From Myxococcota bacterium (lineage in GTDB: Bacteria; Myxococcota_A; Polyangia; Nannocystales; Nannocystaceae): DNA of 64,000 nucleotides. This document shows, in pieces, positions 18,001 through 33,000 of this stretch. The stretch lies in contig JBCCHT010000021.1 in assembly GCA_039028615.1 (NCBI GenBank), positions 32,001 to 96,000 on the forward strand, given 5' to 3'. The position numbers were made by a program. The stretch's first letter is position 1. Each line of letters opens with the position of its first letter.

Positions 18001-21000
18001 GTCGCGGACGAGGGATAGAGGCAGAATCTGAGTGTGGCCCAAGCTCACCTCGTCGTCGCCCGGGCACTGACTCCAGTCGCAATGCGAGGTCGGGAAGTGG
18101 TCGGTATTGCTGGGGCAGAGAAACTGGTCGCACCGCTGGGGCGGGCGTCGACCCCGGCGCCCTAGCTCCCACCGATCCCGCGGAACATGATTTGATGTCA
18201 CGTTTGGTGATGGCGATCCTCAGGCTCGTTGGCTTTCGGTGTCGACAAAGGTGTGCACCGTCGCGCCATGAGCAGTGCGTGGAGGAGCGACGATCCTCGC
18301 GAGAGATTTCGGACTCGTCGTCCTCGATATTTCGAAATGGCCTGAAATCGAACGCCAGCGACGGTGTAGGAGCCCTGCCGCGAAACGAGAGGTGATGACG
18401 GTTTTTCGCCGAGCTACACCTGTTTTCGTGCACGTCCCCAAACTCGATCGTCGAACTGTTCGTGTTTCCGCGCCGAGCAATCGCTCGAGTGGCCCGCGAA
18501 AGGTGTCCCCATTTCGTTCTCTGGTTGGCGCTCTAGAACAGCGTCGCGGCGCCTCCCATGCTTGATTCGCCGCGACGGCGCATGCTACGGATGGTGACTG
18601 GGAGTTAGCGACGTTCGCTCTCTTCTACTATAGGGGGAGCGGCGCTCGACGATGCCACGCCCCTCGTATCGATAGCGGTCACGTCGGCCGATGCAGCGGT
18701 TCTTGCGAGGAGTGTGGCGATGCCCATCCAGACGGACAATAACCCGGAATATCGCGGTCCCAAGGGGTTCAACAAGTATAGTCCGCTGAAAAAGCTACAG
18801 TTGGCCGCTGGTGACAGTGCGCACTACGACGCGCTCGTCAGCAGCCGAGAAACGCTACTCAAGGCTCCAGCAATCTTCCCTGCGGAACTGCTACTGGTCA
18901 TGCCGGACTGGGATGCGGCGGTGAACCAAGAGAACGCTCATGGCGGCAATCGACCTCCGCTGGTGGTGGTCTCGAGCAACCGCGCGGATTGGATCCTCGC
19001 AGGATTCAACCGAGCGACGGCGGTCCTTCATGCTCTTGGCGGCGGGCTGACCCACTTCAACAACATCAACGATGTCCGTGCACTCCTCGGCCCTACACCG
19101 GACCCTCAGTCTCCACCAGTCTACTGCCCCTTACGCCTGGGTCCTGCGCCGCGCCGTAGTGTCTATATCATCGTTCATGCGGCGGAATACGACTACTACA
19201 AGACCAAGCTGAGCGGCACCGGGGTCACGATTGTCGGCTGGCAGTTCAAACAACCGACCACAGGTCCCGTTGGCACGAACCCATTCAGTGGTTTCGGCGC
19301 GAGCCGGTTCGCAGCCATCGAGTTCCTCAAGACGCTGAGAAACAAGGCGCATGCGGCTGGAGGGGCCTACCCGTGGGGCAAGGCCTGGCTCTTCGACGAC
19401 AACGTCATCGGGTTCAGGTTGTTCGCCGGTCTCACGGCCGTCGAGACGGCCATGGGGGCCACCGACGTCTGCGCTGGATTCAACGGGCTCATCCAACCGA
19501 ATACACGGGATGAGAACCGAAAGTGGGCGAACGGTCAGCCGCCGAATAAAAAGGACGGTACGAATCTTCCTGCGCTGAAGGCCTCCAGGCCACCAGGCCT
19601 CGTTCAGCAAGCCTCACTTTGGAATATCGACTACATCGAGGCGCAAAATGTGAACTTCAGCCCGATCTTCGTCGCCTCCAAAGAAGATGTGAGCCTCACG
19701 CAGTACTTCAATACGAAGCCGATCACGTACCAGTGGTACGCGATCGACATATTCAAAGAGCCCGCGGGGTATGACAACAGCCCGGGCGCGGGCATCGTCA
19801 ATACCGCCCGGCAGGCGTTCACCAATTACTTCTCCACTCCAGAAGACAGCGTGTCGCTCGATGCCCCGTCTGCCCCCGCCACCACCGCGAACCCGACGCC
19901 ACCGCGGACGACTCAGACGCTACGGCACTTCGTGGACAATGTGGTGCTGCCGGGCTCGGTGAACGTCGATGCAACGCAGGCTGCCAACGCGGACATCCAA
20001 CGGCTGGCGGTCTGCCACAGCATCGAATCGGTACTGACCAGCGCGGTCAAGGGCGACTTTCCACCACCCGCGAAAGCAGCCCCGTACGCTTCGTATTTGG
20101 CGCCGGCCTCCGTCAGTGAGATGTTCAACCCCCCAGGCGGTGCCACGGTCACCGTCACCGCACGCGACGTTTCCTGAGGCCCTCCGATGTCTCTCACCGC
20201 ACTCGTCACCACTCTTCGGGGCCAGGCCGCCAGCTCGAGCATCGAGCTGGACAGCAGCGTCATCGCTTCCGACACGACGCGGGAAGCCATCGCCACCGCG
20301 CTGGCCCTGGGCAGCGGCGCGCACCTGACCATCGCAGGGGTCACCGCGGCCGACATCCCTGACCCCGCCAACGGCAAGGTCGTGATCTCGGTGGGCACCG
20401 CGTCGTTGCTCGGACGCACGGCGGTCCCGATTCACCTGGAGTTCACCGAGCCCCTGTCCACCATCGAGGTCATCATTCGGGCCACGGTGGGGACCGGGTG
20501 GGCGTTCAAAGACAGCTTCAAGGGCCTCGATACCTTCCCCTTCAACCTGCTGACGTTCACCGAGACGGCCTACACGCCACCCCAGTTCGTCTACACCACG
20601 ACGCCGAATTCGGCGTATCCGTGGCCGGACGACGCGGCCCACACGATCGATCTGGCCGCGGCGGGCCTGTACTTTCTCGCCGAGATCGGCGTGACCAGCT
20701 TCACCCTGGTCGGGCAGCTCCTCGGCAAAATCGTGAAGCCGGGGCCGGTCAAGTTCTACGGCCCGTTTTCACCCGTGGCTGGCCAGTCGCTGCCCGTGGG
20801 CAAGATTCGCGCCCCGCTGGGCGACGACACCGACACCTTCGATGTCGGGACCGGGTCCGACAAGCTCACGTTGAGCACTCCGGCCCTGGCCGTGCAGGTC
20901 ACCGAAGCCAAAGACTCGACCGAGCTGCAGCAGGTCGATCTGTTGGTCGAGTCGGTCTTGGACAAAAAGCTCGACATCGGCGTCGTTTTTCCGATCAGCG

Positions 21001-30000: not shown

Positions 30001-33000
30001 CGGCTACGCATGCGGCTGCATGGGCCTGCCGTGACCGCGTCCGACTGGGCGCACACCCGGCTCGACTGGTCCACGCCGGATGTCCCGGACTTCGTCAGCT
30101 ACAAGTTCGGCATTCGCATCGGGGACCAAGCCACGCGCGAAGACGGTGTGATCGGGTACTACGCCGATACCGACTATTCGACCTTCAACAGCGTGGTCGC
30201 TCCAGACACGGCGAGCCCCCAGACCTACGTGAAACAGATCGGCCCCATCGGCCAAGCGACGGGCGGCAACTTCATCGATCTCGACTATGAGGATGGCAGC
30301 CAGCAGTACTTGAGCATTTTGGTGGATCCACGCGCCGCGATGCATGCGATCACGGGCGTGTTACCGGCAAAGAAGGTCAACATCCCCGCCGGTTTGGTGG
30401 AGCGGGCGCTGACGAAGATGGAGGTCGGCTTCACGCTGGGGCCCATCCTGACCGAGATCCGCGAGACGCCGACCCAGGGCGGCACGAAGCCCGCCCACCC
30501 CATGGCAATCTCCATCCCTTCGCCAGCCGAGCAAGGCGGCACGTGGTCGTGGTGGGAAGGCGACGGCAAGGGGCACTGGACCGGCTACGACCTCACGACC
30601 TCGACGACGACGGCCAAGCTCGAGGACACGCCCAACACGCTGCGCGAAGGCACCTTGCAGCTGACCATCGATCTCGACAGTGGTGGCGCGGGCTCGGACA
30701 ACGGAGGTGAATCAGGAGACGCTCCAGATCCAGGGAGCGTGGCCCACGTCGTCAGGCAACGCAGTCACTAAAGCCCCATTCGAGCCCCAAGACCGAAAGA
30801 AAATCCCATGGCCCCGACCCCGCCCATTCTCGAATACCAGTTCTCGACGTTTCCCTCTCAGCTACAGGTCAGCACCCCTGATACGGAGGCCCAAGGGCGG
30901 ATCGACGTCAGCGTATCCAGCGGTGCCACGCCGAAGTATTGCAGCATCATTCGCATCGCAATTCCCCTGGGGACGGACCCGACGGAGTTCGGCCCGGGTC
31001 CACTCACCGCGTCGGTGAGCAGTGCGAAATGGACTCTCTCCGACCATGACATCGTCCCTGCCAGCACGTTCGGCCTGAACACTCAGACTCAGTACGCGCG
31101 CTTTACCTTCAATGCCCGCGACGCCACGGCCTACAAGATCGACTACAACCTCGTCTTCAGCGTGCAGGGGGCGGTCAACCAGAGCATCGGCAGCTTCGGC
31201 TATCTGGTTCAAGAGACCTCGGGCACCAGCTCGACCAACCTCACCCCAAAGCAGGGGACCTTCCCCCTGACCAAGGTCACGCCGTTCTTCTATCTCGAGA
31301 ACCTGGTCACGACCACCACCACCGCCCCCCTGGTTCCCGCCTCGCAGTTCGCCAACAGCACCGCCATTCGCCTCGCCTGGGAGAGCAATGGCACCTGGTT
31401 CCAGGTCTTCGAGAAGGGGAACACCACACCGCTCTATTCCGGGCCCAACAAGACCTTCACCGTTCCCGCTGGAGCGGCGACCGACACCACCTACTACGTC
31501 CAGGCTGCAGTGACCCAAGATCCGGCGGGGGACACGGCCAGCTTCGAACCGATCTACTTGTACGAGTCGGCCACCGTCACCATCACGAACCCGGACCTGA
31601 CCCCGAACAGCTCGATCGTCACCGGAAACTTCAAGGCGATGTTCGGGGCAGACGTTGGTCCGTTCACCGCGACCACGGGGGCCCTCTCCCATGCGATGAC
31701 CAACTCGAGCGGCACCAACGCTACGCTCATCCTGACCAACAAGACGGCGTACGCCAGCGGCGACCAGCCGTCCGGACTCATGGTCAACGTCGTGAAATCG
31801 ACCGATGTCGCGATCCGGACCTCCGGGATCATCGAGGTCGATGTCCCGGCCAAGAGCACCGCGATCAAGACCGTCGGCACGATCGTGGTGACCGTACCGG
31901 TCACCAGCGACATCGCGTTCAGTACCAACGGGGTCATCAAGTCGGCGTCCGGCCTCACCGCGACCACCATGCTCGAGACGAGCGAAGGGCCCCGGCCGGC
32001 GACGTCTCCCCTCGTCCTCGACGCCAAGGTCCACCTCTGTGGAAGCGGGAAACTTCAGTCGGGTCGTGCCGAGGTTCCGTTCGGAGCGGAGCGCGACCTC
32101 ATCGCGTCCGACGCTCCTTACGTCGTGCTGATTACCCCGACCGATCAATGCAATGGCGTCTGCGTCCCGCACAAGAGCGCGGAGGGATTCGCCGTGCAGG
32201 AACTCGGAGGGGGCACCAGCGACGCGACGTTCGACTGGCTCGTCATCGCCCCGAAGCGCCACACCCTCGACCACGACGCGACCCACCCGCTGCCACAGGA
32301 GTAGGGAGAGCACGCCAAAACGGAGCGCGGGTCTCGTCGATGGTACAGTCGGCGAATGCGGGCTGTTGTCCCTCCCTACATGGTTCCGACGGTGGAACTG
32401 CTGCGGAGGGCGTTCCCGAGCGGCATACCCGAATGTGACCTCCTGCCTCTGATGGCGGTACTGGGCGACGCGGGAATGTCGAATCGAAGTGTGGCCGCTG
32501 CGGTCGGGTACTACTACGGGAAGGACTCCACGGCGTTTTCCTACCAGGCGCACATCTGCACCGTGGATGAGACCGTCTCTGACCTGACCAAGTTTGCCAT
32601 TCGAGAGTACCTCCGTAAGTTCGGGTTCGACGACTGGGTCGCGTCGTCGACATGAAGCCGCTGGCGGGCGACGAAGTAGCAGCGAAACGCGACCATCGGG
32701 CGTGAGGCGCTCCGGTGCCTCGGGCGCGGCCGCGACGGGAAGTTTGGCGCTGGTATTGGCTCGGTCGCGAAGCTGATGGAACTCGATGTCGTTCAGGCGG
32801 CTCCACGCTCGCCGAACATGAACGTGTCGCGCGAGCGCTTCCACGCAAGCGTGAGGCGCGAATGCCTCGACCATGCCCTCATGGCCGATGCGCCCCGTGG
32901 ACGTGATCCGACCCGCGAGGTCTGGGAACTGGACACATGTCATGCGTTCGTTCTCGTTGCCCCCACTCGTCACCGCTTTGGGCCTTGTCGCCGCGTGCAC

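Follow-up and report, generated by a model that had tools for sequence, protein, structure and literature searches.

What kind of machine is made by a bacterial operon whose largest products have no described function and of which only one matches a named family? This question is raised by the window, a 64,000-nt stretch of DNA from a Myxococcota bacterium (GTDB phylum Myxococcota_A), in which six co-oriented genes span positions 18714-32655 (Table 1).

A tightly packed operon of large proteins

The genes that a genome-wide survey's note had placed next to an IS66 copy were found again as ORFs on the plus strand; the IS66-family transposase ORF itself is flanking context outside the module. 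Within the operon, the stop of the gene for component A overlaps the start of B by 4 nt, and the stop of B overlaps the start of C by 1 nt. At the upstream end, GAGGAG precedes the ATG at 18720 of the accessory gene, and at the downstream end the last protein, previously given as 91 aa, comes to 99 aa when read from its first ATG. The same note had pointed to a lower G+C, which turned out to be no real signal: since the operon stretch (0.606-0.649) differs only slightly from the rest of the window (0.58-0.71), and the four large genes (GC3 0.84-0.88) resemble their neighbours (0.73-0.89) at third codon positions, composition gives no sign of a foreign origin. The neighbourhood in the window gave no functional hint and contains no defence island.

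As the survey had reported, DUF6603 (PF20248; E 1.2e-157, residues 735-1248 of the 1462-aa component A) is the sole Pfam family in the operon proteins, for which NCBIfam, PADLOC and PHROGs returned nothing, and profile searches of PDB sequences gave nothing below E 0.35. No paper mentioning DUF6603 was found in the literature searched. The accessory gene lies outside the conserved core: only L005 and L058, two loci out of 64, have relatives of its 487/485-aa product, and the 487-aa protein has no match in Pfam, NCBIfam, PADLOC or PHROGs. Similarly, the 99-aa ORF, which weakly matches DUF3349 (E 1.5e-4; 22.9 bits, under the cut-off of 28.3) and for which tblastn across the loci found no relative, is probably not a module member.

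Table 1. Genes of the operon and its flank in the window, with the regions of component A (beta regions as predicted)
Feature	Position	Strand	Basis or remark
IS66-family transposase ORF, 367 aa, DDE domain only	16687..17790	+	Pfam DDE_Tnp_IS66, E 2.6e-75
Accessory gene	18714..20177	+	ORF; 487 aa from GTG, 485 aa from ATG at 18720
Component A, DUF6603 protein, 1462 aa	20187..24575	+	ORF, Pfam
A, N-terminal half, variable	residues 1-~690		
A, Gly-rich disordered linker	residues ~692-728		
A, amphipathic antiparallel beta-meander, about 23 strands	residues ~730-1190		
A, smaller beta domain, then C-terminal helix	after residue ~1190		
Component B, 777 aa	24572..26905	+	ORF; no known family
Component C, 1288 aa, multidomain	26905..30771	+	ORF, AlphaFold2 model
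Component D, 498 aa, putative recognition subunit	30808..32304	+	tblastn, HMM
Small downstream ORF, 99 aa from first ATG	32356..32655	+	ORF

Conserved linkage and a fourth component

The conservation of the locus was followed in an independently drawn sample of 69 loci, of which metagenomes supplied 51, the window's phylum 13 and GTDB genomes 5. A relative of B is encoded in 64 of them. Where the upstream sequence extends for 1.5 kb or more (45 loci), DUF6603 precedes this relative in 43; where the downstream sequence does so (48 loci), a relative of C follows in 45. Order and strand are kept in all 44 loci that hold the three, and also in two annotated plasmid loci (46/46), bearing out what had been claimed from the survey's own loci. 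Its description as a three-gene module is right in that the trio is tightly linked but falls short in the main branch, which has four parts, the family of the 498-aa component D being the one to add.

D starts with an Ig-like adaptor (about residues 1-145), continues with a second part, to about residue 275, that is conserved among close relatives, and ends in a variable part for which Pfam and PHROGs name no domain in the window copy; conservation, as seen by tblastn and HMM, is limited to the N-terminal part. The family, with an adaptor of about 140 aa, counts 1,730 representatives at E<=0.001. Of the 39 loci whose sequence runs on for 1.5 kb or more beyond C, 27 carry one to four adaptor-domain genes, and the window's 498-aa gene is the sole one of this genome. 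Relatives at the same position end in Peptidase_S74, a phage tail collar, or Kelch or YNCE/WD40 propellers. Among 84 representatives scanned, out of 122 listed at 300-1000 aa, we found beta-propellers in 24, a tail collar in 6, Peptidase_S74 in 3 and nothing in 51, and an enzyme or toxin domain in none. In addition, D relatives match tail-fibre PHROGs over their C-terminal parts (L003, E 6e-40; L044, 4.3e-37; L051, 2.6e-37), and tandem copies (those of L026 and L044, and most pairs of L054) are more alike at their N-termini than at their C-termini. Judged from these sequences, D would be a swappable recognition subunit, and the unit of the main branch one of four parts. D is not universal, because the adaptor domain is missing from a divergent branch of the phylum to which the window belongs (0 of 5 genomes).

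Natural fusions connect all four proteins. DUF6603 and the B family share single polypeptides in P0169 and P0170, with the B part behind DUF6603; the C-terminus of the C family is fused to one or two D adaptors in P0090 and P0163; P0028 combines DUF6603 with two adaptors; and in L069 and L071 a B-like protein carries an adaptor-like domain at its C-terminus. Since stops and starts overlap and the fusions include A+B, C+D and A+D, we consider it very likely that A, B, C and D form a single physical complex, in line with the one protein machine that had been proposed.

Predicted structures of the components

The earlier statement that no fold match exists needs revision for A. In the AlphaFold2 model of its residues 700-1462 (pLDDT 79.4, pTM 0.66), DUF6603 takes the form of an amphipathic beta-sheet, porin-like or ApoB-like (pLDDT about 90), with mean hydropathies of 2.05 and -0.50 on its strand faces, and is preceded on the linker side by 28 residues below pLDDT 50. 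Foldseek matched the model to the ApoB100 beta-belt (E 9e-5) and to no other structure at E<=0.001. The top 50 hits in VIA-align were all membrane beta-barrels, with Z up to 12.9-13.8 and an rmsd of 9-17 A, and the lowest rmsd was given by open or giant sheets, namely an ApoB100 fragment (Z 13.1, 8.6 A) and SprA (Z 10.6, 9.1 A). The Foldseek TM of the matches is only 0.12-0.20, and the modelled likeness to beta-barrels and the ApoB100 lipid belt is one of topology only. We predict that the sheet is likely the membrane- or lipid-engaging working part of the complex; that such an amphipathic sheet would be equally compatible with a two-layer soluble fold counts against this reading.

Component B, conserved at about 1-420 and about 500-690, two parts that L008, L011 and L017 encode as separate ORFs, has no match in Pfam, NCBIfam, PADLOC, PHROGs or the PDB sequences. 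Polar residues conserved across 46 sequences include C167, H192, R194, R219, H236, S239, E241, R346 and D380. Its previously noted fungal match was found in the ESM Atlas as an Ascomycota cluster (TM 0.63/0.57 over 642 residues), both sides being automatic models.

Component C combines beta-sandwich parts of Ig/FN3 type with a hairpin of helices (about 390-517) and, at the C-terminus, beta domains. Its model (residues 1-1200; pLDDT 81.1, pTM 0.78) found no match at E<=0.001 in the PDB and BFVD by Foldseek and a best Z of 6.3 in VIA, so that no solved or viral fold matches the predicted structure. C is likely the platform that carries D.

Searches for export signals, phage relatives and partner genes

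Neither the N-termini, when inspected, nor a scan with hydropathy windows revealed a signal peptide or a hydrophobic or transmembrane helix in the components, and the D relatives begin straight with the adaptor, with no leader before it; both observations argue for production in the cytoplasm. In none of the components was a toxin or enzyme domain found. PHROGs has no match for the D adaptor, A, B or C, none of 50,697 phage records matches A, B, C or D, and scans of IMG/VR gave no relative of A or B.

When the genes of the loci were clustered, only upstream accessory genes recurred. Across the 69 loci there is no recurring gene for secretion or lysis, nor one for a sheath, tube, spike or ATPase. 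Cytoplasmic proteases of the trypsin type, their TAxH...GDSGGP motifs intact, are encoded directly upstream in seven loci, all of one sub-branch; a subtilase is encoded upstream in L008.

A patchy distribution with possible horizontal spread

The module is present in about 3-4% of genomes, patchily. Five named phyla were seen as hosts (Acidobacteriota, Myxococcota, Pseudomonadota, Actinomycetota and Bacillota) in addition to the window's own, where DUF6603 scores above cut-off in 13 of 401 genomes; in the phylum of the Hyalangium genome, the B profile was found in 13 of 301. The 12 strong matches of the genome scan all lie in genomes of at least 9 Mb. The proteins of the window share 44-54% identity with those of the Pyrinomonadaceae and Hyalangium loci, but only 22-39% with those of nine trio-type loci of their own phylum, eight of them with all three genes. 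Plasmids of Streptomyces, Embleya, Kitasatospora and Paenibacillus also carry the module. The horizontal spread suggested by the survey's note is therefore plausible, as the identities conflict with taxonomy and the module is borne on plasmids.

What the complex may do

The explanation that we favour, though tentatively and at somewhat less than an even chance, is a so far undescribed complex that is produced in the cytoplasm, targeted by fibres or propellers and active on membranes. A, B, C and D would be assembled in the cytoplasm into one large complex in which B adjoins A, C serves as the platform and D docks on the core via its conserved Ig-like adaptor. Released by lysis or another route, or exposed, the complex would be attached by D to the surface of another cell, the target being bound by D's variable end (a tail-fibre tip or beta-propeller), and the DUF6603 sheet of A, as the part engaging membrane or lipid, would perturb or pierce that cell's membrane. 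Targeting of a cell surface is made more likely by the tail-fibre-like D relatives. If so, it would be a tail-less particle that fibres direct in attack or delivery. Attack is nevertheless a guess, as is the survey's label of a conflict or delivery system: it is weakened by the lack of a recurring secretion, lysis or sheath-type gene in the 69 loci, by the window's own D without a named end and by the missing adaptor in the divergent branch, and the upstream trypsin-like proteases fit intracellular activation at least as well.

Such activation is central to the main rival, which we regard as unlikely: a complex for immunity or regulated cell death inside the cell, in which D senses invader molecules there and a trigger, possibly a proteolytic cut at the linker before DUF6603, sends the sheet into the producer's own membrane, in analogy to the gasdermin pores that proteases activate. 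The proteases in seven loci and the subtilase in L008 would suit it, as would the Gly-rich disordered linker (pLDDT below 50) ahead of the sheet, components without export signals, a D that, as in other immune sensors, varies and comes in several copies, the fungal look-alike of B, the patchy occurrence (13/401 and 13/301 genomes), plasmid carriage and identities that conflict with taxonomy. Yet the proteases are confined to one sub-branch, PADLOC found nothing, neither an NTPase or nuclease nor any other known defence module is present, the window is no defence island, and Peptidase_S74 and tail-collar ends are typical of the extracellular receptor binding of phage fibres. We think it quite improbable that the assembly is structural and non-lethal, be it a device for adhesion at the cell surface or on vesicles or a coat on a membrane or lipid particle, with D as a lectin-like attachment; as a coat, it could wrap lipid in the DUF6603 sheet like the ApoB100 belt. 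That belt and the SprA barrel segment are indeed the best-fitting solved sheets, the D ends are binding modules with no toxin among them, and the strong matches all come from large genomes, but a surface role would have to do without export signals, housekeeping poorly fits so rare a module, and swappable, tandemly duplicated D subunits are poorly accounted for. The homology of D's C-terminal parts to phage tail-fibre parts might further suggest a decayed or domesticated prophage or tailocin piece. This origin is largely refuted and highly improbable, given a trio and adaptor without PHROGs, phage-genome or IMG/VR matches, the capsid, tail, sheath and baseplate genes that never recur in the loci, and intact ORFs conserved across phyla.

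Comparison with known systems

D resembles the tail fibres and receptor-binding proteins of phages, including the fibres of tailocins and extracellular contractile injection systems (eCIS), in joining a fixed N-terminal attachment to an exchangeable distal binder, in its tandem copies and in relatives with a Peptidase_S74 chaperone or tail collar. It differs in that its adaptor is Ig-like and without a PHROGs or phage-genome match, that it would dock on an A/B/C core with no phage relative, and that many of its ends are beta-propellers, the window copy having no named end. Like eCIS and tailocins (PVC, Afp, R-pyocins), the proposed complex would be cytoplasm-assembled without signal peptides, fibre-targeted, and horizontally and patchily spread in environmental bacteria; in contrast to them, genes for a sheath, tube, baseplate, spike or AAA ATPase are absent from the window and do not recur in the 69 loci.

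Tc (ABC) toxins likewise have three giant subunits per operon and are membrane-acting, receptor-binding machines of megadalton scale, as proposed here. However, Pfam finds no VRP1, TcdA/TcdB pore, SpvB or RHS family in the operon, no Tc or RHS structure is among the fold matches listed, and the membrane element predicted here is a beta-sheet, whereas that of Tc toxins is an alpha-helical channel. With porins, SprA, ushers and the ApoB100 belt, DUF6603 shares a long up-and-down antiparallel amphipathic topology (Z 10-14), although the fit is poor (rmsd 9-17 A, TM 0.12-0.20), and it differs from outer-membrane barrels in lacking a signal peptide or sequence relation and in occurring also in the monoderm Streptomyces and Paenibacillus. 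Lastly, the putative beta-sheet membrane effector beside a cytoplasmic protease in some loci recalls gasdermins, protease-activated pores with bacterial and fungal forms and neighbouring activating proteases. The operon has no gasdermin family match in Pfam and the proteases are found in one sub-branch only; moreover, a gasdermin sheet is an oligomer of small hairpins, whereas that of DUF6603 would be formed by a single giant chain.

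Genes of the module and their surroundings

The trio consists of the 1462-aa DUF6603 protein (A), a 777-aa protein (B) and a 1288-aa protein (C), joined in the main branch of the module by a putative recognition subunit of 498 aa (D). Neighbouring genes of the trio overlap, and overlapping stops and starts are the usual mark of translational coupling. Among the six proteins of the operon, DUF6603 on A (residues 735-1248, E 1.2e-157) is the sole Pfam family, just as the genome-wide survey's note had it; A passes the PF20248 gathering score with 526 bits vs 27 and spans profile positions 1-498 of 502. 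None of the six matched an NCBIfam, PADLOC or PHROGs family, none carries a signal peptide or hydrophobic helix, and all are acidic. The genome (12.27 Mb, 94 contigs) holds one copy of the module, one of DUF6603 and exactly one gene with the adaptor, as we call the N-terminal domain of D.

Coordinates of features in the window and in related loci (L numbers) of our own sample
Feature	Where	Position	Strand	Observation
210-aa ORF	window	10198-10830	+	C-terminal 'Luciferase domain' PF17648, E 7.6e-22
666-aa DUF4407 protein	window	13482-15482	-	just 5' of the IS66 copy; E 1.6e-8; coiled-coil tail; weak SMC and LmuB-like matches
IS66-family transposase	window	15767-17790		seems split, perhaps by frameshift or decay
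315-aa ORF	window	15767-16714		overlaps the 367-aa IS66 ORF in a different frame; no family match
IS66 transposase ORF	window	16687-17790		5' of the module; 367 aa; DDE domain alone (Pfam)
Six consecutive ORFs	window	18714-32655	+	487, 1462, 777, 1288, 498 and 99 aa
Other start of the 487-aa ORF	window	18720		485 aa if started at this ATG, preceded by GAGGAG
1462/777 gene overlap	window	24572-24575		4 nt
777/1288 gene overlap	window	26905		1 nt
99-aa ORF	window	32356-32655	+	3' of the module; DUF3349-like match below cut-off, E 1.5e-4
1191-aa protein	window	32873-36448	+	directly 3' of the module; EGF/teneurin-like, DUF4215 and RTX repeat matches; cysteine-rich
Four D genes in tandem	L026 (metagenome)	10273-16470		first three, complete copies: pairwise identity 65-71% (N-terminal 150 residues), 38-48% (C-terminal 250)
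Major-vault-protein-like gene	L009 (one own-phylum genome)	17041-19524	-	~2 kb 3' of the module; MVP shoulder E 4.7e-25, Vault_3
Genes with the look of a separate toxin-delivery locus	L072 (p-YT9A)	1-2086		~7 kb 5' of the module; annotated as phage baseplate assembly protein V, pentapeptide-repeat protein, GH-E nuclease fragment and ankyrin protein

The 99-aa ORF is kept in none of the related loci, and the 1191-aa protein is probably unrelated to the module, since it has no relative there either. The remaining genes of the window encode LysR regulators, a Ser/Thr kinase with TPR repeats, an ECF sigma factor and large secreted adhesin-like proteins; with such neighbours we dropped the idea of a defence island, and the neighbourhood gives no functional hint. 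As for composition, the drop in G+C to which the earlier note pointed is slight, and the GC3 of the large module genes (0.84-0.88) is about that of the neighbouring genes. Composition therefore counts as evidence of nothing, and an argument for recent transfer from it was abandoned.

Conservation and hosts of the trio

Our linkage sample comprised 69 loci, namely 5 from GTDB species genomes, 13 from the window's own phylum taken around DUF6603 matches, and 51 from metagenomes found with the profile of the 777-aa family; because loci were picked by similarity to one member, the following counts speak for linkage, not for frequency. A 777-aa relative is encoded in 64 of the 69. DUF6603 lies upstream on the same strand in 43 of the 45 loci that extend 1.5 kb or more upstream (exceptions L067 and L070), and a 1288-aa relative was present in 45 of the 48 that extend 1.5 kb or more downstream (exceptions L008, L027 and L069). 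Order and strand were kept in all loci holding relatives of A, B and C (44/44), and the same gene order is found on two annotated plasmids, p-YT9A of Paenibacillus polymyxa and pCLA1 of Streptomyces clavuligerus, so that the fixed arrangement claimed by the survey is borne out in our own sample. In the Paenibacillus record, the first gene is annotated as 'DUF6603 domain-containing protein' and those after it as hypothetical proteins.

DUF6603 scored above cut-off in 13 of 401 sampled genomes of the window's phylum. Similarly, the 777-aa profile matched in 13 of 301 sampled genomes of the phylum to which the Hyalangium genome belongs; 12 of these matches were strong, every one of them in a genome of at least 9 Mb. 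Named hosts belong to the Acidobacteriota, Myxococcota, Pseudomonadota, Actinomycetota and Bacillota; a search of RNA sequencing runs for the 777-aa gene listed no carrier. With the Pyrinomonadaceae and Hyalangium loci, the window's proteins share 44-54% identity, as compared to only 22-39% with nine trio-type loci of their own phylum. At the level of sequence, this fits horizontal transfer; the survey's claim of horizontal spread thus keeps the support of the identities and loses that of composition.

Two variants occur within the window's phylum. In a divergent branch of the module (L010, L011, L013 and L018), the DUF6603 proteins reach 2,700-3,800 aa through ~2,000 additional N-terminal residues without a Pfam match, and the 777-aa gene is often divided into two separate ORFs; the giant N-terminus may substitute for D. 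Elsewhere (L014, L015, L016 and L020), DUF6603 proteins of 1,130-1,190 aa occur without 777-aa and 1288-aa genes and adjoin PhoD-like proteins (a family of 782-947 aa) and unknown proteins of 1,568-1,707 aa, which may be a sister system.

Protein clustering over the related loci revealed no further recurrent family beyond accessory genes upstream. In seven loci, such a gene encodes a cytoplasmic trypsin-like protease (TAxH...GDSGGP in 7/7, signal peptide in 0/7). Others encode a protein of the metallo-beta-lactamase fold (L027, L033), a subtilase (L008), DUF4135 (L001, L030) or a member of the family of the window's 487-aa protein (L005, L058).

DUF6603 as a predicted amphipathic sheet

Residues 700-1462 of A were modelled with AlphaFold2 on a 29-row alignment (pLDDT 79.4, pTM 0.66). 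In the model, a disordered Gly-rich linker leads into ~23 long antiparallel strands, which span residues ~730-1190 at a pLDDT of mostly 85-95 and are followed by a smaller beta domain and a helix. The only Foldseek matches at E<=0.001 were three ApoB100 entries with TM 0.12-0.18. Alignment with VIA-align against 48,161 chains placed nothing but membrane beta-barrels in the top 50 (Z 8.5-12.9, rmsd 9-17 A), among them porins, TOM40/VDAC, MtrB, SusC, ushers, SprA and BamA/TamA. In a second VIA-align comparison, closed porins reached Z 13-13.8 at ~14 A, and a fragment of the ApoB100 belt reached Z 13.1 at 8.6 A over 269 residues; SprA had given Z 10.6 at 9.1 A in the first. Closed barrels superpose at 13-17 A despite a Z of up to 13.8, and open or giant sheets fit best. 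In the alignment, the two faces of the strands differ in mean hydropathy, one being hydrophobic (2.05) and the other neutral-polar (-0.50). We thus read the modelled DUF6603 region as a sheet that is large, amphipathic and gently curved, with up-and-down strands, and that would stand outside any barrel family. We looked for internal sequence repeats in the giant DUF6603 proteins and saw none, and ESM Atlas features of the DUF6603 protein gave matches of at most 0.85, to unnamed clusters.

Residues 1-1200 of C also gave a confident model (30-row alignment, pLDDT 81.1, pTM 0.78). Foldseek found no match for it in PDB or BFVD at E<=0.001, and the best VIA-align Z was 6.3, the matched parts (an Ig/FN3-like sandwich and a helical hairpin) being generic. 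The statement that the operon proteins lack any fold match consequently holds for the 1288-aa protein and has to be withdrawn for DUF6603, given its likeness to ApoB100 and to barrel topology. PDB sequence profile searches with the alignments of the component families (A1-A4, with A4 for the adaptor) found nothing. Across 46 sequences, the 777-aa family conserves C167, H192, H236, S239, E241, D380 and about ten arginines, among which no nameable motif was recognized; in the ESM Atlas, the 777-aa protein found, besides its own family, just one fungal cluster.

A fourth component with exchangeable ends

The survey had described a three-part module. Its main branch, however, has a fourth part: a gene with the adaptor was present in 27 of the 39 loci in which 1.5 kb or more of sequence follows the 1288-aa gene. 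In the window's D, conservation by tblastn is limited to the first ~270 residues, and an iterated HMM built on the N-terminal ~140 residues recognized the adaptor in 47 locus proteins, nearly always at the extreme N-terminus, with one to four such genes in tandem per locus (four in L026). Among 1.84 billion representative proteins, the profile matched 1,730 representatives at E<=0.001, 1,120 of them at E<=1e-10. An Ig-like sandwich is the apparent fold of the adaptor; partial matches of its profile fell on HYR repeats in one representative. D is not universal, as the divergent own-phylum branch had the adaptor in none of five genomes searched.

What follows the adaptor varies. By Pfam, genes in the position of D carry Peptidase_S74 (L001, L002, L003 and L021), the phage tail collar (L044 and L051) or Kelch propellers (L005, L044 and L058); propellers of the YNCE/lactonase/WD40 type are found in L037, L039, L043, L045, L047, L053, L054 and L068. 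Phage fibres of the endosialidase type have Peptidase_S74 as their intramolecular chaperone. A scan of C-terminal parts covered 84 of 122 listed representatives (300-1000 aa) and recognized a beta-propeller in 24, a tail collar in 6, Peptidase_S74 in 3 and nothing in 51, with no enzyme or toxin domain in any of the 84. A further search for longer proteins, in which 8000 candidates were scored, gave 15 matches with the same pattern of collars and propellers. PHROGs matches of D relatives were restricted to the C-terminal parts, as illustrated by L003 (32 families, E down to 6e-40) and by L044 and L051 (tail collar fibre families, E 4.3e-37 and 2.6e-37); adaptors, the trio and the window's own D had none. 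Because the adaptor is constant and the ends vary, D is a family of chimeras, that is, to judge from sequence, a probable private docking domain with exchangeable binding modules, some of them apparently derived from phage fibres. The Kelch protein of L005 and a 959-aa protein of L011 were considered as bearers of a hidden adaptor and rejected, the hhalign probabilities (1.3% and 22.6%) not being significant.

Natural fusions tie the components to one another. Two proteins of 1,974 and 1,985 aa (P0169/P0170), one of them named as a Saccharothrix isguenensis DUF6603 protein, have a DUF6603 part (at 726-1396 or 726-1428) and, immediately after it, the whole 777-aa family. The N-terminal 1288-aa family is followed by one adaptor in P0090 (1,855 aa) and by two in P0163 (2,063 aa), which is the basis for saying that D probably attaches to the 1288-aa protein at its C-terminus or close to it. 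In P0028 (2,618 aa), DUF6603 is followed by two adaptors, and in L069 and L071 a 777-like protein ends in an adaptor-like domain. Added to the gene overlaps within the trio, these fusions argue that A, B, C and D form one physical assembly, and the fusion map (A-B, C-D, A-D) offers a concrete, directly testable architecture. A complex prediction for two DUF6603 sheets (residues 28-495 of A2) scored 0.01 vs a mark of 0.42, which we take as evidence neither way.

Possible functions of the module

Our best reading, held tentatively and somewhat short of an even chance, is a tail-less, fibre-targeted particle for attack on, or delivery into, other cells. The complex is synthesized in the cytoplasm; D would aim it at a surface ligand, and the DUF6603 sheet would be the membrane-engaging working part. 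Extracellular receptor binding is the known setting of S74 and collar ends, and the D family was never seen with an effector. Its weak point is that neither an export route nor an effector was found in the loci or components. In the main rival reading, the same architecture might instead be turned inward, with D sensing an invader and the sheet, perhaps freed at the disordered linker by the neighbouring protease, permeabilizing the producer's own membrane; we consider this unlikely, at about half the weight of an attack on other cells. Slightly less probable again is a non-lethal role as a structural element or lipid coat, which the likeness to ApoB would fit and which the patchy distribution and swappable subunits fit poorly. 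A decayed prophage is nearly excluded: tblastn of A, B, C and D against 50,697 phage genomes gave no match, and profiles of A and B found no relative in IMG/VR. Genes for a sheath, tube, baseplate, ATPase, secretion or lysis do not recur across the related loci.

Returning to the particle aimed at other cells, its boldest form would be a machine of a new class, without relation to phage tails, to Tc toxins or to secretion systems, in which a core of three giant proteins with an amphipathic beta-sheet as membrane breacher is aimed by swappable fibre- or propeller-tipped subunits, and which serves attack on or delivery into other cells in many phyla, with look-alikes in fungi. In this full form the proposal is doubtful, lying between the preferred reading and the inward one. 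No relative of the module's core was found among solved structures, phage proteins or named families. A literature search, from which supplementary tables were excluded, found no paper with the word DUF6603 and no description of such a module in the text it covered, in line with the survey's view of an undescribed system; the 'tail fiber' and 'pore-forming' passages of PMC7159879 have no bearing on it. If true, DUF6603 would gain a structural meaning, that of a giant amphipathic beta-sheet which monoderms and diderms alike make in the cytoplasm, and the module would provide a naturally modular targeting scaffold.

Comparison with known systems

One parallel is with phage tail fibres. The fibre-end feature (S74, collar) is present in D relatives at the orthologous position and not in the window's copy, whose 498-aa protein matched no S74, tail collar, other Pfam or tail-fibre PHROGs family and, for want of such matches, is not classifiable as a tail fibre. 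The D family would nevertheless act like a fibre/RBP family, judging by its ends. Fibres are encoded in phage or tail-like clusters and attach to a baseplate; D had no match in the 50,697 phage records, and the loci hold no baseplate, sheath or tube genes. Contractile injection systems and tailocins have a sheath, inner tube, baseplate (gp25/gp6-like), spike and ATPase, all absent from the module, and Pfam found no contractile-system gene in the window or among the genes flanking related loci. The families of Tc (ABC) toxins, that is TcA (VRP1/TcdA-TcdB pore), TcB (SpvB, propeller, RHS) and TcC (RHS shell with a variable toxin end), are likewise absent from A, B and C (no Pfam match at E<=0.1), and Tc, RHS and teneurin chains were missing from the fold matches listed for the DUF6603 part and for C, both modelled at more than 400 residues.

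Outer-membrane beta-barrels are resembled in topology by the modelled DUF6603 region, yet at an rmsd of 13-17 A to closed barrels; they have a signal peptide and DUF6603 has none, and they reside in the diderm outer membrane, whereas relatives of DUF6603 also occur in the monoderms Streptomyces and Paenibacillus. Polymorphic toxins combine a variable C-terminal toxin with an adjacent immunity gene. The ends of D, in contrast, are binding modules (propeller, collar or S74 in 33/84, toxin or enzyme in 0/84), and clustering of the locus proteins gave no recurrent small gene 3' of the module as an immunity candidate. Among known defence systems, PADLOC-DB 2.0 assigned 0 families to the six operon proteins at E<=0.1. 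By their defining features, the module thus belongs neither with contractile injection systems nor with Tc toxins, outer-membrane barrels, polymorphic toxins or known defence systems. By analogy, it may work like a fibre-targeted machine: if so, a widespread multi-protein apparatus of ~4,000 residues would have borrowed its recognition logic from phage tail fibres and would take its place, as a new intercellular weapon or immune effector, beside tailocins, contractile injection systems, Tc toxins and gasdermins.
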